A DNA stretch of 64,000 nt from Escherichia coli (lineage in GTDB: Bacteria > Pseudomonadota > Gammaproteobacteria > Enterobacterales > Enterobacteriaceae): the NCBI RefSeq assembly GCF_003019035.1, contig NZ_CP027447.1, one strand, 5' to 3'. Below are positions 354 through 8,295 of the stretch, one piece after another; position 1 is the stretch's first letter; every line of letters starts with the position of its first letter. The notes under the pieces were generated by a model. That model was not told the origin of the DNA. It did not search any database and saw nothing but the letters and a program-made list of their open reading frames with translations. The translations under genes and the position numbers were made by a program.

Positions 354-2135
354 ATGAATGCTGCCCTGACTGAACGACTGGTTTATGTCGCCCGCGCGGC
401 ACGTGACGCGGGGCATGGTAAACGCGGTGCAATATACGACGCTGCCTGTGCTGAACTTGGCATGTCCCGCGCCACTCTGCTGCGCAGGCTGAAGGAGGTC
501 TCTGTGACTGATAAACGCAAAAAACGCGCCGATGCCGGGCGCAGCGCTCTGACCCGCGACGAAGCCGCGCTGATATCTGCCACACTGCGTGAGGCCACCC
601 GCAAGAACGGTAAGCGTCTCTATTCCATCGCAGATGCAGTGGAAACCCTGCGGGCTAACGGCTTTATCTCCGCAGGCAGAACAGATGAAACCACCGGTGA
701 GTTTTTCCCGTTGTCCGAAGATGCCATCAGTCGTGCCCTGCGTAACTATGGCCTGCACCCGGAACAACTGGATGCCCCTGCACCGCATACCGAAGTGGCC
801 AGTCTGCATCCCAATCATGTCTGGCAGATTGACGCCTCACTCTGCACGCTTTACTACCTGAGCAATGGACATAAAGGGCTGCAGGTGATGGACAGCGCGA
901 AGTTCTACAAGAACAAGCCCGCTAACCTTGCCCGTATCGCCAGTGACCGCGTGTGGAGTTACGAGATTACCGACCATGCCAGCGGCTGGATTTACGTTGA
1001 GTATGTGACGGGCGCGGAATCCGGTGAGAACCTGTGTTCTGTGCTTATCAACGCCATGCAGGAGCGCGGTGGCGCAGACGTGCTGCACGGCGTGCCGAAA
1101 ATACTCTATCTCGACCCTGGCTCGGCAAACACCGCGGGTATGACGAAAAACATGTGCCGCTCACTGGGCATCGACCTGATAGCGCACAGGCCGCATAACG
1201 CCCGCGCCACCGGACAGGTGGAAAAGGCGCGTGACATTATCGAACGCAAGCTGGAGCCGGGTCTGAAGTTCCGGCCGGTTCACAGTCTGGAAGAACTCAA
1301 CGCGCTGGCCGCGAAATGGCGCAGCCACTTTAACGCCACGGCTGTTCACAGCCGCCACGGTAAAACCCGCACGGATATCTGGCTGAAGATTACTGCTGAG
1401 CAGCTGAAAAAAGCGCCTTCCGTTGAAGTATGCCGTGAACTGGCTGTGGCGACACCAGAACTCCGCAAAGTCACGCCAAAACTTCGTGTCTCGTTCCGGG
1501 GCACTGAATTTGACGTATCAACGGTACCGGGCGTACTGGTTGGTGAAAAACTGATGATTACCCGTAACCCATGGCGCAGCGATGTGGCACAGGTGGTTCT
1601 GACCGGTGAGGACGGCCACGAGACGTTCTTCCTGGTCGAAGAGGTCAGAAAGAACGAGTTTGGCTTTGCTGAAGGCGCGGCGGTATTTGGCGAAAGTTAC
1701 AAAGCCCTGCCGGAAACCCCGGCACAGATGGCGGCAAAAGAAACCGAAGCGCTGGTTACCGGTACAGACAACGCCGCAGATGCAGCCGCCGCACGCAAGG
1801 CGAAGGCGCTGCCGTTCGGCGGGCGGCTTGACCCGTATAAACATATCGACGACACCACACTTCCGGCCTATATGCCGAAGCGTGGTCAGGCCTCTGACGT
1901 ACGCGGGCCGCGCACTGAACAACGTCCCATGACTCATGTGGAGGCCGCGAAAGCCCTGCGCGATAAGTTCAGCGCCGACGGCCTTACCTGGACGCCGGAA
2001 CATTACCGCCAGTTAACGGCACAGTACCCGGACGGCGTACCGGAAGCTGCACTGGATGAAGTCATGGCCACGCTGACCACGCCGGCCCGCAGCAGCGTTA
2101 TCAGCAGCGTTATCAGCATTGTTAACGGCAACTGA
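354..2135 (+). CDS. Mu-like DDE transposase (A-like, integrase-core family)
   Basis: 593 aa ORF, ATG at 354 with GGAGG upstream; integrase-core-like segment (HVWQIDAS...); sits directly upstream of a B-like ATPase as in Mu A-B. Confidence 0.8.
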   Translation: MNAALTERLVYVARAARDAGHGKRGAIYDAACAELGMSRATLLRRLKEVSVTDKRKKRADAGRSALTRDEAALISATLREATRKNGKRLYSIADAVETLRANGFISAGRTDETTGEFFPLSEDAISRALRNYGLHPEQLDAPAPHTEVASLHPNHVWQIDASLCTLYYLSNGHKGLQVMDSAKFYKNKPANLARIASDRVWSYEITDHASGWIYVEYVTGAESGENLCSVLINAMQERGGADVLHGVPKILYLDPGSANTAGMTKNMCRSLGIDLIAHRPHNARATGQVEKARDIIERKLEPGLKFRPVHSLEELNALAAKWRSHFNATAVHSRHGKTRTDIWLKITAEQLKKAPSVEVCRELAVATPELRKVTPKLRVSFRGTEFDVSTVPGVLVGEKLMITRNPWRSDVAQVVLTGEDGHETFFLVEEVRKNEFGFAEGAAVFGESYKALPETPAQMAAKETEALVTGTDNAADAAAARKAKALPFGGRLDPYKHIDDTTLPAYMPKRGQASDVRGPRTEQRPMTHVEAAKALRDKFSADGLTWTPEHYRQLTAQYPDGVPEAALDEVMATLTTPARSSVISSVISIVNGN

Positions 2136-2145
2136 GGAGGAAAAC

Positions 2146-3312
2146 ATGCTGGTACTGAAGCAGCAACTGAAAGAGGCCCGTATCCCACAGGCGGTGGTGG
2201 CGAGAGCTGTCGATGTTTCTGAGGCCACGCTGGCCCAGATTGTGAATCATAACGCGTGGCCCCGCACCCGCCCCGGAGAAGTGCGCCGGCGTCTTGCGTC
2301 CTGGCTGGAAAGTCAGGGGATTGATACAACGAAGAGTTTTGATGCTGTACAGGGCGCGGCCACGCCCCGTACAGCGGGTACCACAGATAAAACGAGCCTC
2401 AGTGAGGAAGAGAATATGTTACTCAAAAAACAGGTGTTATTTCCAGCAACCAAAAAAGCGTTTGGTCTTTTCCGTGACCCGTTCGCCGACGAAGCCATGC
2501 AGGGTTCTGATGATGTGTTCACCACCCCGGACATTCGCTACGTGCGTGAGGCGCTGTACCAGACAGCCCGTCATGGTGGGTTTATGGCCGTCATCGGTGA
2601 GTCCGGTGCGGGTAAATCCACGCTGCGCCGCGACCTGACTGAACGTATCAACCGCGAGAATGCGCCGGTAATTGTTATCGAGCCATACATCATCGCTATG
2701 GAAGACAACGATGTGAAAGGGAAAACCCTGAAGGCAGCAGCTATTGCCGAAGCCATTATCAGTACCATCGCACCACTGGAAAGCATCAGACGCAGTCAGG
2801 ACGCCCGCTTTCGCCAGTTGCATCGCGTCCTGAAAGACAGCAGCCAGGCGGGGTTCAGCCACGTTCTGGTGATTGAGGAGGCTCACAGTCTGCCCATTCC
2901 GACACTGAAACACCTCAAACGCTTTTTTGAGCTGGAGTCCGGTTTCAAAAAACTGCTGTCCATCGTGCTGATTGGTCAGCCGGAACTGGCGACAAAACTG
3001 TCTGAACGCAATATGGAAGTCCGTGAAGTCGTTCAGCGCTGTGAGGTGGTCGAACTTCTGCCTCTGGACAATAACCTTGAAGAGTTTCTGACGTTCAAAC
3101 TGCAACGGGCCGGTAAACAACTGACGGACATTATGGACGCCAGTGCAGTGGATGCCATACGTGCCCGCCTGAGCAATCCGGGAAGTCATCGTAAAAATAT
3201 GGTCAGCCTGCTGTATCCGCTGGCCGTCAGTAACCTGGTGATAGCCGCCATGAATCTGGCCGCTGAAATCGGGGTTCCACAGGTCAACGCTGACGTTGTC
3301 AAAGGGGTTTAA
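2146..3312 (+). CDS. Mu B-like AAA+ transposition ATPase
   Basis: ATG 2146 preceded by GAGGAGG; Walker A GESGAGKST, Walker B-like VLVIEEAHSL; N-terminal HTH-like segment; overlaps A stop. Track ORF starts at TTG 2119, but the ATG at 2146 has the better RBS. Confidence 0.8.
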   Translation: MLVLKQQLKEARIPQAVVARAVDVSEATLAQIVNHNAWPRTRPGEVRRRLASWLESQGIDTTKSFDAVQGAATPRTAGTTDKTSLSEEENMLLKKQVLFPATKKAFGLFRDPFADEAMQGSDDVFTTPDIRYVREALYQTARHGGFMAVIGESGAGKSTLRRDLTERINRENAPVIVIEPYIIAMEDNDVKGKTLKAAAIAEAIISTIAPLESIRRSQDARFRQLHRVLKDSSQAGFSHVLVIEEAHSLPIPTLKHLKRFFELESGFKKLLSIVLIGQPELATKLSERNMEVREVVQRCEVVELLPLDNNLEEFLTFKLQRAGKQLTDIMDASAVDAIRARLSNPGSHRKNMVSLLYPLAVSNLVIAAMNLAAEIGVPQVNADVVKGV

Positions 3313-3314
3313 TA

Positions 3315-3584
3315 ATGAAATCCACCACAGGTATCAACCAGCAAATCAGCAAAGTGCAGTCAGCCATTATGGCGCTTAAGGCGACGAACACGGATGTACA
3401 AAGCATCACCATCAGGGGTAACAAACCTGTCATCCGCGTTTCCCGGAGTGCGCATTGCATGCGCATGCTTGAGCAGGGAAAGGCCTGTTATCTGTATACC
3501 GGACATGACCACAGGGGATATTTCCGTCAGGGCGTTTTCGAACTGCACGGCTGTCGCGTCGTGTGGCCGGAATCTTTGTGGTAA
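3315..3584 (+). CDS. hypothetical small protein (89 aa) between B and gam
   Basis: ATG 3315 with AAAGGGG RBS, 2 nt after B stop; no recognisable motif. Confidence 0.5.
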   Translation: MKSTTGINQQISKVQSAIMALKATNTDVQSITIRGNKPVIRVSRSAHCMRMLEQGKACYLYTGHDHRGYFRQGVFELHGCRVVWPESLW

Positions 3585-3611: not shown

Positions 3612-4142
3612 ATGGCAAAAAGTACAAAAGGGGCAAAACGTATCAAGTCCGCAGCGGCACTCTGGGTACCAGGGACACGCGAAGAGGTCATTGAGGGCAT
3701 CAGACTGCTCGGTGACGCACAACGTGAACTGGTCAGGGCTGAAACAGAAATGAATGACGCCATTGGCGATATCACCGCACGTTATGCCCCGCTCACCGAG
3801 AGCCTGAAAAAACGCATGGCCGAACTGCAGTCCGGTATTCAGACATGGTGTGAGGCACACCGTGATGAACTGACCGGCAACGGGAAGGTGAAGTTCGCTA
3901 ACCTCACCACCGGCGAGGTGCAGTGGCGAAACCGTCCGCCATCAGTCAGTATCCGTGGAGCGGATAATGTTATTGAACTACTGAGACGTCTGGGGCTTGA
4001 GCGCTTTATTCGTGTAAAAGAGGAAATAAATAAAGATGCCATTCTGAATGAAAAAGAGGCCGTGAAAAATATTCCCGGTATTACCATAAAAAGTGATATT
4101 GAGGATTTTTCAATAATTCCTTTTGAGCAGGATGTGCAGTAA
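3612..4142 (+). CDS. gam: Gam-like host-nuclease inhibitor (Mu Gam / Ku-like DNA end-binding)
   Basis: 176 aa; N-terminus MAK...KRIKSAAA, ETEMNDAI, and C-terminal EDFSIIPFEQ closely match recalled phage Mu Gam. Confidence 0.88.
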   Translation: MAKSTKGAKRIKSAAALWVPGTREEVIEGIRLLGDAQRELVRAETEMNDAIGDITARYAPLTESLKKRMAELQSGIQTWCEAHRDELTGNGKVKFANLTTGEVQWRNRPPSVSIRGADNVIELLRRLGLERFIRVKEEINKDAILNEKEAVKNIPGITIKSDIEDFSIIPFEQDVQ

Positions 4143-4184
4143 ACACACCACGTTAATTATTTAATAAAAATATTTTCTTTTTTA

Positions 4185-4221
4185 TTCCGGCGTCAGCGCC
4201 GTGGGCTTCTGCACGCCGGAA
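4185..4221 (+). promoter_or_regulatory. inverted repeat / hairpin in AT-rich intergenic region after gam
   Basis: ttccggcgt (4185-4193) pairs with acgccggaa (4213-4221), preceded by a T-rich tract; may be a gam terminator or an operator for the next operon. Confidence 0.3.
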
Positions 4222-4239
4222 ACAGAGGAGAATTAAATT

Positions 4240-4434
4240 ATGATATTTAAATGTATTCAGTGCGAGAGGGATATAACAGCCCTGCGTTTTCACAGCGCCA
4301 TCGCCGTGATGTCCGGTAAATACCACATCCCTGCGGTACGCGTCACCCTGGTCTGCCCGTACTGCAGCCAGCATTTTTCGGCGGACGTGCCCGTCATGGA
4401 ATTCTCCCGCCCTGACAGGGAGGACGCGCAATGA
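4240..4434 (+). CDS. small zinc-ribbon protein (64 aa; CxxC...CxxC)
   Basis: ATG 4240 with GAGGAG RBS; Cys pairs CIQC and CPYC about 30 residues apart. Confidence 0.55.
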   Translation: MIFKCIQCERDITALRFHSAIAVMSGKYHIPAVRVTLVCPYCSQHFSADVPVMEFSRPDREDAQ

Positions 4435-4703
4435 TTACCCCACAGGAAGCACGACAGCGCACCCGAACCCTTGTTGAACACTATGTCAACGAGTGTGAAT
4501 GCCGCGACCTCACCGATGTGAAGCACGTCCTGACGGCGCTAATCAGCATGGCCGCTCAGGCCATTGTGGCGACCAACGGAAAGGCGGCTGCCCTGCAGGT
4601 ACTGGTGAACACACTCACCCACACGGCAGAGCATGAGGTGCCGTACCGGATGGAAACCACTGCAGAAGGCGGCCTGCACATCACCGTCAGCCGGAAGCAC
4701 TGA
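4431..4703 (+). CDS. hypothetical protein (90 aa)
   Basis: ATGA start/stop overlap with the preceding gene, GGGAGG RBS; no recognised domain. Confidence 0.5.
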   Translation: MITPQEARQRTRTLVEHYVNECECRDLTDVKHVLTALISMAAQAIVATNGKAAALQVLVNTLTHTAEHEVPYRMETTAEGGLHITVSRKH

Positions 4704-4712
4704 GGGCGCGGC

Positions 4713-5009
4713 ATGACACGAAACACCGAACTCACCCGCACCGCCCTCTACCGTCTGGCCCTGCACCGTTTCGGGCCGGACGCACAGGCCCTGAAACTGA
4801 CAGAAGAGGCCGCTGAACTGGCGGCCAGTGCTGCCCGCAATCTGAACGGACAGGGCAACGAAAGTGACCTCGCGGCAGAGCTGGCAGACGTGGAAATCAT
4901 GACAGAGCAATTGCGCCTTCAGGGGATGGACCGGCTGATTGACTTCCACAAACAGAAAAAACTGGAACGTCTGGCTGCACGACTGGGCGTGATTTACACG
5001 AACGAGTAA
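4713..5009 (+). CDS. MazG-like nucleotide pyrophosphohydrolase-domain protein (putative)
   Basis: 98 aa; EEAAELA and ELADVEI motifs resemble the EExxE and ExxD helices of small MazG/NTP-PPase proteins; GAGGG RBS. Confidence 0.45.
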   Translation: MTRNTELTRTALYRLALHRFGPDAQALKLTEEAAELAASAARNLNGQGNESDLAAELADVEIMTEQLRLQGMDRLIDFHKQKKLERLAARLGVIYTNE

Positions 5010-5023
5010 CCGGGAGGCATTCA

Positions 5024-5239
5024 ATGGCTGACATACTCAGGGAAATCACCGCATGGATACTGATTCTTACTGGCCTGGCGACATGCCTCAGTGCGGGGGC
5101 AGCCCTGGCTGCCCTGCTGATGCACATAACAACACAGTGGTTATGGGAAAAGCTTAAAGCAGCATACAGCCTGAAAGAGCTGTCCGACGCTGTCCGGGCA
5201 TGGAAACGGCAGAAAAATACCGGAGATACAGAACAATGA
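5024..5239 (+). CDS. small membrane protein (71 aa, one predicted TM helix)
   Basis: ATG 5024 with GGGAGG RBS; hydrophobic segment ITAWILILTGLATCLSAGAALAALLM; ATGA overlap with the next gene. Confidence 0.5.
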   Translation: MADILREITAWILILTGLATCLSAGAALAALLMHITTQWLWEKLKAAYSLKELSDAVRAWKRQKNTGDTEQ

Positions 5240-5919
5240 CAGACCAGAATAAACACATTGAGAAACTGAAAAAGTTGCTGGCGCTGGCCGCATCCGGCAA
5301 CCCGCACGAGGCCGCTCTGGCACTGCGCCGAGCCCGTAAACTGATGGATGTTCACGGCATCACACATTCCGACATTGCTATGAGTGATATTGATGAAACC
5401 ATCAGTCATTACTGGCCGACAGGCAGTCTCCGTCCACCGCGCTACATGCTGGGCCTGATGAACATCATCCGCGAGGCATTTGGTGTTAACTCCATCATTC
5501 ACCCCGGCACGCATCCGTCTGTGGGGTTCTACGGTAACCGGGAACGAGCGGCACTGGCTGCGTACACCTGGGAAGTGCTGGTCCGCCAGCTGAAAAAGGC
5601 GCGTCAGCAGTATATCAGCGCACAGAACAAAAGAATAAAAAACGCCACCCGTACCAGCCGTGGAGACCAGTTTGCTGAAGGCTGGGTACTGGCCGTTATC
5701 AGTGAAATACAGTCCTTTGCCCTGACCGATGATGAGCGTGAACTGATGCAACAGTGGCTGGAACATAAATACCCGCAAACGCAAACCACCAGGGCGCGTA
5801 AACCGGGAAGAAGCCGCAATGGCGACGCCTCGCGCTATGCGGGGTTTCGTGAAGGGCAGAACGTCAGACTGCACCGCCCGGTCAGTGGGCAGGAACAACA
5901 GAAACTGGAGGCCAGATGA
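5236..5919 (+). CDS. DUF2786-like phage protein (227 aa)
   Basis: N-terminal motif KLKKLLALAASGNPHEAALALRRARKLM is typical of the DUF2786 family; GGAGA RBS. Confidence 0.55.
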   Translation: MTDQNKHIEKLKKLLALAASGNPHEAALALRRARKLMDVHGITHSDIAMSDIDETISHYWPTGSLRPPRYMLGLMNIIREAFGVNSIIHPGTHPSVGFYGNRERAALAAYTWEVLVRQLKKARQQYISAQNKRIKNATRTSRGDQFAEGWVLAVISEIQSFALTDDERELMQQWLEHKYPQTQTTRARKPGRSRNGDASRYAGFREGQNVRLHRPVSGQEQQKLEAR

Positions 5920-6146
5920 TTACGCTATCAGGTAACAGCCGGAAATTAAAAGCCTGCCGAATATCTGCCAGATACCTTTTTGCCCGCGCCTTTTTTAAGA
6001 ACGTCAGGCCGGGGATCACAATTGGTGTTATTGCCGGACGCGAACAGGTTGAAAAATACATGTCAGGTGCATGGTGGGATAACGACCCTGTCATTGCTGC
6101 CCGTAATATTCATATCAGTTGGGGGGATATTCAGAATGACGGCTGA
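5916..6146 (+). CDS. hypothetical protein (76 aa)
   Basis: ATGA overlap with DUF2786 gene stop, GGAG RBS 5 nt upstream; no domain recognised. Confidence 0.4.
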   Translation: MITLSGNSRKLKACRISARYLFARAFFKNVRPGITIGVIAGREQVEKYMSGAWWDNDPVIAARNIHISWGDIQNDG

Positions 6147-6351: not shown

Positions 6352-6793
6352 ACAACGTCTTATCCAGCTCATTCATATTGCCCGTAATGAACTGGGTATG
6401 GATGAAGACACCTACCGCCAGATGTTACAGGGGCTGACCGGTAAAGCCTCAACCAAAGGAATGGATACCACACAACTAAACTGCGTGCTGGAATCCATGA
6501 AAAGGAAAGGCTTTCGCGTTAAGCCTGCCGGAAAAGCCAGCTCCGGTTTACCGCTGGATAACCATCCGCAGTCCAGGAAAATCCGTGCGCTATGGCTTGA
6601 AATGGCTGCTGCCGGCATTGTTCGTGACCGTTCAGAAAATGCATTAGCGCGGTGGATCAAGCGGGAAACGGGCATCAGCGCCCTGCGCTGGCTCAATACT
6701 GAACAGGCAAGCAGTGTTATTGAGAAACTGAAGAAGTGGCAGCACAGAGCTGCGGGAGTAAAACATGAGCGACCTGAATCAGTTTCGAAGTAA
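6341..6793 (+). CDS. gemA: GemA-like protein (Mu gp16 family)
   Basis: ATG 6341 with AAAGGAG RBS; N-terminus MMTKQRLIQLIHIARNELGMDEDTYRQ matches the GemA family; 3' end overlaps mor by 29 nt. Confidence 0.8.
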   Translation: MMTKQRLIQLIHIARNELGMDEDTYRQMLQGLTGKASTKGMDTTQLNCVLESMKRKGFRVKPAGKASSGLPLDNHPQSRKIRALWLEMAAAGIVRDRSENALARWIKRETGISALRWLNTEQASSVIEKLKKWQHRAAGVKHERPESVSK

Positions 6794-7163
6794 AGGGCCG
6801 GAACTCCTGGTGGAGCTGGCACAGCATACCTCTGAGACCGTTCGCGAGATTATTGATATTGAGCCCGCAATTGCCGACCAGATTGGTCAGGCCGTCGCGA
6901 ACCGAATGATGCAGGTCTGGGGCGGGCAAAACGTTTATTTCCCGATGGGCATGGTATGGAAGGTCAGTCAGCGCGACCGGGAAATCTTCAGGGAGTTTAA
7001 CGGACGCAACCACCACGAACTGGCCCGCAAGTTTGGTGTTTCGCTTCAGTGGGTCTACAGCGTGGTTAAGCGGGTCAGAAAAGAAGAACTGGATCGGATG
7101 CAGGGCAGGTTGTTTGATGAAGATCTGCCAGAGGAGACGAAAGACGTTAACAAATCCAGATAA
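6765..7163 (+). CDS. mor: Mor-like middle-operon transcriptional activator
   Basis: 132 aa; GGQNVYFP motif and C-terminal HTH resemble Mu Mor; GGGAG RBS. Confidence 0.82.
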   Translation: MSDLNQFRSKGPELLVELAQHTSETVREIIDIEPAIADQIGQAVANRMMQVWGGQNVYFPMGMVWKVSQRDREIFREFNGRNHHELARKFGVSLQWVYSVVKRVRKEELDRMQGRLFDEDLPEETKDVNKSR

Positions 7164-7205: not shown

Positions 7206-7240
7206 AAAAGCACGGTAGACCCCTTACCGTGCTTTTTTTA
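7206..7240 (+). terminator. rho-independent terminator after mor
   Basis: Stem agcacggta / taccgtgct with 7-nt loop, followed by a T7 run (7234-7240). Confidence 0.6.
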
Positions 7241-7277: not shown

Positions 7278-7910
7278 ATGTTTGACGTTTCGTTGTTAAA
7301 TCTGCCATGGGCAACACTGGTGACCCTGACCAGTGGCTATATTGGGTATTTTATTGCGAATGTGGGACTGAAGGATCACCACAAGCCCATTGAGGTGACT
7401 TTTTCTTCGCTGATTTTTGGCCTGACAGCAATGATGGCTTACCAGGCTGTTATGTGGGCAGGTCTGAATGCCTGGCTGGCAACACCACCAGCACTTCTGT
7501 GTGCCGTTACATGCGGTGCGTGGTGGCGCAGGTACGGTCGCAAATGGATGTACAGATTACTGTGGAATAATGATATTTCATGGTCTGACGATACCAGCTC
7601 AGCATGGCAGGCAATGTTTGATCAAACAGGCTTCAGCGTTACCGAGGTCAGAGTGATTCTTCGCGATGGTTCCGGTATGATGTCACGGCTGCCAGGGAAC
7701 TTTGAAGAGTGGCCTAACGGTCCGTTTACCCTGGGGAATAAAGGCGATATGGTTCTTTACGTCACGCACAGCAGCCCTTCAGGCAGTAACGAATGGGAAG
7801 AGTATAAAGGCGTGGTTGATAAGTACTGGGGAGCTCTGGCAACCTATATTCCAGCAGATCAGATTGCCAGAGTGGAGATCAGGCGCGTTCGTGCAACGAA
7901 CGATGAATGA
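7278..7910 (+). CDS. orphan membrane protein (211 aa; three N-terminal TM helices plus about 125-aa soluble C-terminal domain), function unknown
   Basis: ATG 7278 with AGGGAGA RBS 6 nt upstream; hydrophobic helices at roughly residues 8-30, 40-63 and 67-83; sits where Mu carries late activator C; no family recognised. Confidence 0.6.
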   Translation: MFDVSLLNLPWATLVTLTSGYIGYFIANVGLKDHHKPIEVTFSSLIFGLTAMMAYQAVMWAGLNAWLATPPALLCAVTCGAWWRRYGRKWMYRLLWNNDISWSDDTSSAWQAMFDQTGFSVTEVRVILRDGSGMMSRLPGNFEEWPNGPFTLGNKGDMVLYVTHSSPSGSNEWEEYKGVVDKYWGALATYIPADQIARVEIRRVRATNDE

Positions 7911-8295
7911 TGTTTATTTTTTCCCTGGGGCAGGGGCTGCCGGCATAGTGGTTTTATTGGCAGAGGAAGACGATTCTCCTTTTCTACCGGAATCGCGCTC
8001 GAACGTCACGATGTGCTTGCTTTTGGGCTTTTCTGAGTAATCCAGGCTATCATGCTTATTGTTTTGAGTAGTCATTGGAATCATCCTTTTTGTTGCGGGT
8101 CATGTTTCAGCAAACTCGATTCTAAGTTGCCAGGAAGGATGATTTCAATGCCCGACTTATCTATCGTATAGCGGAAAAGAATTTCAGTTCTGTTCACCAG
8201 AACCCATGTTAACCCACTCCAATTCGTTATTTATCTCACGGATCCCCCTTCATTTATCTCATGTCTGATCAAATCAATAATCATCATGAATGTTT

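Follow-up and report, generated by a model that had tools for sequence, protein, structure and literature searches.

The segment downstream of gam in a BcepMu-like prophage of Escherichia coli: a conserved intercistronic element and four small early genes

We analysed a 64,000-nt stretch of Escherichia coli DNA (contig NZ_CP027447.1, assembly GCF_003019035.1; hereafter the window), which begins within a transposable prophage. The object of this work is the 1.1-kb segment at positions 4143-5239, lying between the prophage gam gene and a gene for a DUF2786 protein, which comprises an AT-rich tract, a GC-rich hairpin and four short open reading frames, ORF1 to ORF4 (Table 1). The tract and the hairpin are the most conserved piece of the segment, and they form a conserved element common to this prophage and phage Mu. 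The four genes belong to known kinds of protein and are not inherited together: ORF1 and ORF3 recur in Mu-like lineages, and ORF2 and ORF4 are sporadic.

Transcription unit of the segment

The genes for the transposase, Gam, ORF1 to ORF4, the DUF2786 protein, GemA and Mor follow each other on one strand in an unbroken and tightly packed chain. After gam there is a gap of 97 nt (4143-4239). ORF1 and ORF2 overlap in an ATGA, as do ORF4 and the DUF2786 gene (5236-5239), and the gaps from ORF2 to ORF3 and from ORF3 to ORF4 are 9 and 14 nt, respectively. With a consensus scan, which weak promoters might escape, we predicted no sigma-70-like promoter on the plus strand between 3200 and 8400, and the same kind of scan gave no terminator between 4143 and 7206. 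The AT-rich tract was considered as a promoter and rejected, having no consensus match. The hairpin was considered as an intrinsic terminator and also rejected: its stem is followed by AAACAGAGGAG on the plus strand and by AATAAAAAAG on the minus strand, hence by no U-tract on either strand, and it was absent from the terminator scan.

Since there is no predicted plus-strand promoter, no U-tract at the hairpin, an overlap past ORF4 and a predicted terminator only after mor, the four genes can best be counted as the fifth to eighth cistrons of the early operon. In Mu, the early promoter Pe is described as giving a single long transcript through the semi-essential genes (PMC3820752); the early promoter of this prophage would, on induction, read straight through the segment in the same manner.

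These data bear on the original prediction, made on the letters of the window, of a translationally coupled, accessory four-gene operon after gam. Its coordinates for the AT-rich tract with the hairpin (4185-4221) are exact, as judged by sequence reading and by the fold (z-score of -3.8), its upstream gene is indeed gam (phrog_491, with 61% identity between the prophage and the Mu Gam proteins), and the four short genes are present as it described them, with Shine-Dalgarno (SD) sequences and ATGA or near-overlapping junctions. In RefSeq all of them are annotated as coding sequences (CDSs) with the same boundaries. The separate operon has to be given up: the four genes have no predicted promoter or terminator of their own, and the chain runs on to the terminator after mor.

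We also observed a 7-bp hairpin (UUCUCCC...GGGAGGA) at 4395-4431, inside the end of ORF1, which could mask the SD sequence of ORF2. It fits translational coupling and is statistically ordinary (z = -0.7).

Table 1. Features of the segment and of the neighbouring early region (positions in the window)
Feature	Position	Strand	Basis and remarks
AT-rich tract	4143-4184	+	sequence reading; ends in the pyrimidine run TTTTCTTTTTT (4173-4183)
GC-rich hairpin	4185-4221	+	core of the conserved intergenic element after gam (or DUF3164)
ORF1, 64-aa C4 zinc-ribbon protein	4240-4434	+	phrog_3401, E 1e-40; SD GAGGAG at 4225-4230
ORF2, 90-aa protein with conserved CxC	4431-4703	+	phrog_3691; lineage-restricted, mosaic
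ORF3, 98-aa putative MazG-family (all-alpha) nucleoside triphosphate pyrophosphohydrolase	4713-5009	+	phrog_2245, E 8e-34; SD GAGGG
ORF4, 71-aa membrane protein	5024-5239	+	phrog_3958; SD GGGAGG; one transmembrane segment, charged C-terminal tail
DDE transposase, Mu-type C-terminus	354-2135	+	
B/ExeA-type ATPase	2119-3312	+	
89-aa protein	3315-3584	+	
gam (host-nuclease inhibitor, Ku-like)	3612-4142	+	phrog_491, E 9.7e-74; RefSeq 'host-nuclease inhibitor Gam family protein'; upstream boundary of the segment
DUF2786 gene	5236-5919	+	RefSeq; phrog_421; conserved downstream boundary of the variable slot
mor	6765-7163	+	ORF list, RefSeq
Intrinsic terminator, 13-bp stem then T-run	7206-7236	+	consensus scan; probable end of the early transcription unit

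The conserved element after gam

The hairpin is formed by 12 pairs with a single bulged C and is topped by a mini-stem of 3 bp. For 4143-4245 the calculated RNA fold has -29.8 kcal/mol (z = -3.8), and none of 200 shuffled sequences was equally stable. In the minimum-energy fold the pyrimidine run at the end of the AT-rich tract pairs with the SD region of ORF1 (4172-4181 with 4224-4233).

For the comparison with relatives we sampled 79 viral contigs via ORF3, 37 via the hairpin core and 80 via Gam. All the window proteins were mapped on the ORF3 and hairpin sets, and the profiles of ORF1, ORF2, ORF3 and Gam on the Gam set. The relatives called below by L-numbers L087, L093, L101, L150, L160/161, L190, L191 and L205 are IMG/VR contigs, and we call slot the region from the hairpin to the DUF2786 gene.

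The 31-nt hairpin core is present once in the window, had 0 matches in shuffled sequences and occurs once per contig in the 37 viral contigs. Among relatives the hairpin has 13-15 of 15 bases identical, compared with 5-10 of 15 in the flanks. Over the stretch of 50 nt that starts with the pyrimidine run and includes the hairpin, 45-48/51 positions are identical, although the flanking genes have reached synonymous saturation (synonymous divergence, dS, of 1.1-2.2) or are replaced. In 20 hairpin variants pairing is kept in 98% of the stem cells; there is one compensatory exchange (U-A/C-G), and five pairs vary by wobble only (in the apical stem, for example, GCC/GGU, GCU/GGU and GUC/GGU). As the substitutions in the stem mostly lead to G-U wobbles, RNA is favoured over duplex DNA as the form in which the element is read. 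Across phage types the stem sequence varies with the pairing kept (CGGCGU/ACGCCG, GGCGCG/CGCGCC, CGGCGC/GCGCCG); the other Gam-bearing lineages have CGGCGC/GCGCCG stems and a common loop motif, CGUCAG. A simple pattern found the core of the element at most 120 nt from the gam stop in 28 of the 61 sampled loci.

A homologous element is present in Mu, in which the semi-essential early region (gam, gp11-gp14, gemA, mor) has the same place and is the same kind of operon. Precisely, the gam-gp11 gap of Mu (NC_000929, 6326-6423) is 98 nt long, about the length of the prophage gap, and has the same layout, that is, an AT-rich box, TTCTTTT, a GC stem (GGCGCGA/TCGCGCC), GAAACAG and then the ribosome-binding site. 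It is followed, as in the prophage, by several small genes and then by GemA and Mor; the small genes themselves, gp11-gp14, are unrelated to ORF1-4. The Mu-type element is also found in D108, SfMu and Yersinia Mu-like phages, and it is unannotated in all the GenBank records. We found no Rfam match at E <= 1 on either strand between 3000 and 8400, and nothing in the literature on a hairpin after gam or on the RefSeq accessions of these genes.

The hairpin was also considered as a site specific for ORF1, for example an autoregulatory one, and this was rejected, being found also before Mu gp11, before MazG-like genes and before unrelated genes of 60-88 aa; moreover, ORF1 follows gam without the hairpin in several lineages. 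As the gene downstream of the element changes by lineage, the element belongs to the junction and not to ORF1.

Hairpins that act as intercistronic processing or stability sites include the early RNase III sites of T7, the lambda N leader and the 5′ stem-loop stabilisers of ompA. The prophage stem-loop is similarly bulged, is intercistronic in a long early transcript and lies beside an AU-rich tract and a ribosome-binding site; its sequence is unrelated to those sites, and a processing role is here a prediction. We propose that the tract and the hairpin would punctuate the mRNA between two cistrons, most likely by serving for its processing or its stability. If the transcript were cut in the AU-rich tract, the message downstream would begin with a stem-loop at its 5′ end; the arrangement, an AU-rich single strand located 5′ of a stable stem, fits an endonucleolytic cut that leaves a protective 5′ hairpin. 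Pairing between the pyrimidine run and the SD sequence of the next cistron may, in addition, lower the translation of that cistron.

ORF1 to ORF4 and the variable slot

Each of the four ORFs matches its own PHROG family end to end (E 8e-34 to 1.7e-55). Pfam scans with each ORF alone gave nothing significant, and NCBIfam gave for the four ORFs only sub-threshold noise (YnfU, S7, HisE). ORF1, ORF2 and ORF3 are under purifying selection. The descriptions of three of the proteins in the original prediction (C4 zinc ribbon for ORF1, MazG-like for ORF3, a single transmembrane segment for ORF4) hold. Of the structure searches that it had proposed (AlphaFold and Foldseek), those on ORF1 returned a confident zinc ribbon, and the MazG-type matches of ORF3 were not significant.

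Judged by its motif and by the matches of its family, ORF3 is a predicted member of the MazG superfamily with the metal-binding acidic motif kept. The EExxE...ExxD motif is present as E31-E32-A-A-E35 and E56-L-A-D59. Residues E31, E32, E56, D59, E61 and E65 are invariant in 22 close homologues; in 26 diverse homologues E31, E35 and D59 are invariant, and E32 and E56 are at least 90% conserved. Against Pfam MazG (PF03819), 14 of 26 family members had E <= 0.1 and 3 had E <= 1e-3, with 2.5e-5 as the best value. A broadened family profile matched the PDB entry 5ie9 with E 1.5e-3, and 2q73/2q5z (iMazG-type) and YpjD (2gta) with E 0.07-0.16; the PDB search with ORF3 alone or with the profile of its close homologues gave noise only. 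The name of phrog_2245 is 'nucleoside triphosphate pyrophosphohydrolase', and newer PGAP runs name ORF3 'nucleoside triphosphate pyrophosphohydrolase family protein'. The ratio of non-synonymous to synonymous substitution rates (dN/dS) is 0.09-0.16 for ORF3 against diverged relatives, and 0.67 in the near-identical L028, a value coming from 6 differences only. Like the Bacillus-conserved MazG (5ie9), YpjD, iMazG, Atd1 and a plasmid dUTPase, ORF3 is predicted to be a single small helical domain of about 100 aa, with this motif and with profile matches to the superfamily, and like iMazG, Atd1 and the plasmid dUTPase it is carried by a mobile element. Unlike them, it has no BLAST-level similarity to characterised members, and it often has a zinc-ribbon gene as partner, whereas no such partner is described for the characterised MazG enzymes. 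The relatives of ORF3 in P0012, P0030 and P0031, and in L154, L179, L185 and L187-L189, have an extra C-terminal part of about 65-70 aa (158-169 aa in total), and these extensions are of two unrelated kinds.

ORF1 has the motif CxxC-30-CxxC. None of its cysteines C5, C8, C39 and C42 varies in 28 family members, the most distant of which have 18% identity, and its dN/dS is 0.07-0.19 against diverged relatives. The AlphaFold model (mean confidence score, pLDDT, of 91) is an all-beta zinc ribbon with strands at 16-24, 31-38 and 45-51, in which both CxxC knuckles, kept across the family, lie on beta hairpins; its fold matches are dominated by zinc-ribbon proteins. Among solved structures, the closest to the model is the zinc ribbon at the N-terminus of NrdR, the repressor of ribonucleotide reductase genes (Foldseek probability 0.95-0.99, TM-score 0.48-0.50 over about 49 residues), although these matches are not significant (E 0.14-0.5), the profile comparison with hhalign gives 2.6%, and ORF1 has no ATP-cone domain. 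Phage proteins annotated as NrdR-like N-terminal domains match the model as well. Its best viral structural match (E 0.023) is a Gordonia phage protein annotated as MazG-like, which may point to a zinc-ribbon/MazG fusion. No match of ORF1 was found among PDB sequences, and the Com family was absent from the Pfam scan with ORF1 alone, although matches up to E <= 10 were admitted.

Few sequences belong to the ORF1 family: 38 clusters match among 1.84 billion representatives. In many Mu-like phages gam or DUF3164 is followed first by ORF1, its more distant relatives being directly after DUF3164 in phages with the classic Mu order, and in every lineage there is an overlap between the 3′ end of ORF1 and the next gene. 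In the GenBank record of phage PhiKM (L002, PQ738613) a minus-strand CDS (5854-6075) is called over the hairpin and the start of ORF1, and ORF1 is omitted. Conservation and dN/dS indicate that this is most likely a mis-call and that ORF1 is the real gene.

For ORF2 we found no significant Pfam or PDB match and no detectable relatives with a characterised function. Its dN/dS is the highest of the region (0.16-0.51, and 0.46-0.51 among E. coli copies), and in E. coli it is mosaic, two N-terminal types being joined to two C-terminal types between neighbours that are 95-100% identical. Named homologues of ORF2 in the databases come almost exclusively from E. coli, the copies on viral-contig relatives have 42-46% and 74% identity, and many relatives lack the gene. 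The hydrophobic segment of ORF4 spans residues 12-30, with a 19-residue Kyte-Doolittle mean of 2.02. All the named homologues of ORF4 are from E. coli, and many otherwise near-identical prophages lack it; its reality as a gene rests on the RefSeq annotation, on its own PHROG family and on the hydrophobic segment. We infer that ORF2 and ORF4 are lineage-specific additions.

The content of the slot changes among relatives, and the DUF2786 gene comes after the variable genes in nearly all of them. The window has ORF1-ORF2-ORF3-ORF4, and TW14425 and others have ORF1-ORF2-ORF3. The L004/L046 type, in which the upstream gene is DUF3164 and not gam, has ORF1-ORF3. L093 and L101 have ORF1, a 67-aa gene and a 163-aa PF04447 dATP/dGTP pyrophosphohydrolase (E 7.5e-44), L087 has ORF1, a small membrane protein and a zinc-domain protein similar to Lar (restriction alleviation), and other relatives have further combinations. 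The region is therefore a cargo hotspot, as the original prediction had it, relatives holding different gene sets between the hairpin and DUF2786; its single accessory unit is not seen, since relatives carry ORF1-2-3, ORF1-3, ORF1 with other genes, or ORF3 alone. The original prediction had also recognised no core Mu function in the four genes. This is right in so far as tblastn found no homologue of ORF1 or ORF3 in Mu, D108 or BcepMu, yet these two are widely conserved Mu-like early genes.

ORF1 and ORF3 are adjacent and overlapping in the L004/L046 type, and they form an overlapping pair right after gam, with neither hairpin nor ORF2, in L150, L160/161, L190, L191 and L205, whose Gam proteins are 55-75% identical. 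ORF3-like genes follow gam in at least 11 lineages of the Gam sample. In L093 and L101, in which ORF3 is missing, the PF04447 (DUF550) gene lies about 460 nt past the hairpin, between ORF1 and DUF2786; its product, from a different family of the same enzyme superfamily, has no sequence match to ORF3. As another nucleoside triphosphate (NTP) pyrophosphohydrolase fills the slot without ORF3, and MazG-like genes follow gam in many lineages, their distribution suggests that pyrophosphohydrolase activity itself may be selected at the slot. PF04447 includes MazZ of the Z-genome phages; unlike those phages, the prophage has no Z-base pathway genes.

Zinc-ribbon genes near distant MazG-like genes in unrelated phages were considered as further cases of the pair and rejected: they were directly upstream in 3 of 15 loci, and the comparison of profiles does not place them in the ORF1 family. 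The databases also contain products that appear chimeric, a deletion fusion of ORF1 and ORF2 (P0087) and fusions of ORF1 and ORF3 (P0026, P0036), of which the latter were not used as evidence; since P0036 also has a C-terminal frameshift, such products may be assembly or sequencing artefacts.

As regards the setting, the right-hand end of the prophage occupies the window from 1 to about 8272, and the genes of the early run are all on the plus strand. Two small proteins and then GemA/gp16 are encoded between the DUF2786 gene and Mor. The layout is of the BcepMu type, with the early operon reading toward the genome end, unlike Mu. The prophage ends about 160 nt upstream of the host gene slyB, followed by slyA, and its left end is outside the window. 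Phage PhiKM, a Bcepmuvirus, is 97% identical to the window and has the same gene order, which is also that of RefSeq records. The 1.1-kb segment was found in 636 of 5426 complete E. coli genomes, sequence type 131 (ST131) among them. Other strains carry this prophage elsewhere, within kefF or the aga operon or near dedA, and such variation of the insertion site between strains is expected of a transposing phage. Beyond the mor terminator there are a plus-strand gene (7278-7910; phrog_12870) for a 210-aa protein with several hydrophobic stretches on sequence reading and, at the extremity of the prophage, a minus-strand 56-aa ORF (7914-8084; phrog_15726). Both are in a moron-like position, occur only in some relatives and have no PADLOC match.

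Interpretation and alternatives

In the reading that we prefer, with a probability of about 60%, the segment belongs to the early operon of a BcepMu-like prophage, in its semi-essential half, and is no module in its own right; the hairpin would be mRNA punctuation, ORF3 an NTP pyrophosphohydrolase and ORF1 its partner. ORF3 would be a small oligomeric enzyme converting NTP to the monophosphate (NMP) and pyrophosphate (PPi) during lytic growth, and ORF1 is probably, given the recurrent overlapping pair and its MazG-like viral match, a nucleic-acid-binding partner or regulator of ORF3. As the substrate class we tentatively prefer dUTP or another unwanted (d)NTP, in a house-cleaning role that would protect the DNA of replicative transposition. 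This preference is due to the precedent of a MazG-like/PRA-PH protein that replaces dut on E. coli plasmids (bioRxiv 10.1101/2020.05.25.114553). An alarmone such as (p)ppGpp, by analogy with Atd1, is the next candidate and an unlikely one.

Several results weigh against this reading. The single ORF3 sequence is not significant against Pfam MazG or PRA-PH (single-sequence Pfam E-values of 0.026 and 0.17), and its model is a helix hairpin, two long helices with a pLDDT of 77.6. In Foldseek 5ie9, 2gta, 4qgp and HisE are near the top with E 0.5-2, hence not significant. As regards the partnership, ORF1 occurs without ORF3 in L087-L118, L148, L153, L123 and L124, and in L154, L179, L185 and L187-189 the hairpin is followed by an ORF3-like gene with a helical C-terminal extension of about 65 aa, without ORF1. 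As regards the element, the pairing between the pyrimidine tract and the SD sequence is weak in several variants and is generic for U-rich against purine-rich sequences. Moreover, there is little true covariation in the stem (one compensatory pair in the close family and one in the wider set), so that its conservation could reflect a sequence-specific DNA site or recent recombination.

The original prediction saw in the segment a place for anti-defence genes. On this view the four genes would be early counter-defence factors, with ORF3, for example, destroying an immune nucleotide signal or (p)ppGpp and ORF1, ORF2 and ORF4 inhibiting other systems. We consider this unlikely, although it survives better than the other alternatives. 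The slot is a cargo hotspot, and in L087 it holds the Lar-like restriction-alleviation domain, in a gene distinct from ORF1 (phrog_599, E 7e-7), whose match to TIGR03655 (E 7e-5) is however below the curated cut-off. ORF2 is mosaic and, with the dN/dS reported above for E. coli copies, the fastest-evolving gene of the region. There is also the precedent of Atd1, a phage MazG-like enzyme of Pectobacterium phage PcCB7V that depletes (p)ppGpp and protects from TIR-STING toxicity (bioRxiv 10.1101/2022.06.09.495361). At E <= 0.01, tblastn of ORF3 against 50,697 phage records, among which the presence of PcCB7V is unconfirmed, matched five records and no Pectobacterium phage. We found no direct support for an anti-defence role: PHROGs and NCBIfam gave for none of the four ORFs a match to a named anti-defence (Lar-like) family, and ORF1 gave no match to the Lar models of either database and 8% with hhalign to a Lar-like phage protein. 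PADLOC, whose models describe host defence and not counter-defence, gave no match at E <= 0.1 for eight proteins of the region. Finally, ORF1 and ORF3 are under strong purifying selection over lineages with Gam 55-75% identical, and their conservation across Mu-like lineages resembles that of a permanent phage function more than that of counter-defence cargo with a fast turnover.

It is rather improbable that the element works as DNA, namely as a protein-binding palindrome or as a boundary sequence that promotes the recombination of modules, instead of as an mRNA structure. Its sequence is conserved more than its structure, with the GGCG/CGCC core and the loop CGTCAG common across types; conservation between Mu and this prophage extends to the AT-rich DNA beside it, and the element lies exactly where the upstream (gam or DUF3164) and downstream modules are swapped. 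However, the one-sided changes in the stem give G-U pairs, which are tolerated in RNA (five pairs), the stems of different phage types differ in sequence with their pairing kept, and the element is invariably found on the coding strand, immediately 5′ of a ribosome-binding site.

A module similar to com-mom of Mu is more doubtful still. Here ORF1 would be, in the manner of Com, an RNA-binding zinc finger activating translation of the overlapping downstream gene, which ancestrally would be ORF3, ORF2 having been inserted later. Against Mu Com, the ORF1 profile reached with hhalign a probability of 85% (P 6e-6), with both zinc knuckles aligned from residue 1, versus 2.6-59% against five other small zinc-binding proteins; zinc knuckles, however, are prone to chance profile matches, and the Pfam scan of ORF1 did not recover Com. 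ORF1 has the size of Com (about 62-64 aa, Com having 62) and, like Com, is encoded by a transposable phage, has an N-terminal CCCC zinc site and overlaps the next gene, but its knuckle spacer is longer (about 30 residues compared with 16), its fold is an all-beta ribbon, and it is an early and not a late gene with no mom-like target. Com binds a hairpin beside a translation-inhibiting structure in the mom mRNA (PMC6483171). In six lineages we found no significant inhibitory structure at the start of the downstream gene (z -0.7 to +1.4), and the conserved hairpin is upstream and not downstream of ORF1, and is present also without ORF1, as in Mu.

That some of the ORFs are not genes, ORF1 for example being an artefact as its omission from the PhiKM record would have it, can be dismissed given its dN/dS, its four cysteines invariant in 28 diverse homologues, the pLDDT of its model, its position conserved in unrelated Mu-like phages and its RefSeq annotation.

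A bolder view, to which we give little credit, is that the zinc ribbon and MazG are an old, undescribed two-gene module of transposable phages, in which a Com-like RNA-binding finger controls or works with a pyrophosphatase that reshapes host nucleotide or alarmone pools early, and that the post-gam element is a conserved regulatory RNA, present also in Mu. If this were true, the enzyme might blunt abortive infection that depends on dNTP depletion or on (p)ppGpp.

If the genes are only house-cleaning and filler, the result is routine annotation. For decades, 'largely uncharacterised' has been the description given to the semi-essential early region in phages of the Mu type (PMC3820752), and the prophage family studied here is present in about one in eight complete E. 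coli genomes. The parts worth experiment are the unannotated post-gam element and the recurrent zinc-ribbon/MazG pair. The element, being common to the model phage Mu, is directly mutable there, and the substrate of ORF3 would reveal a nucleotide problem that a transposing phage faces.

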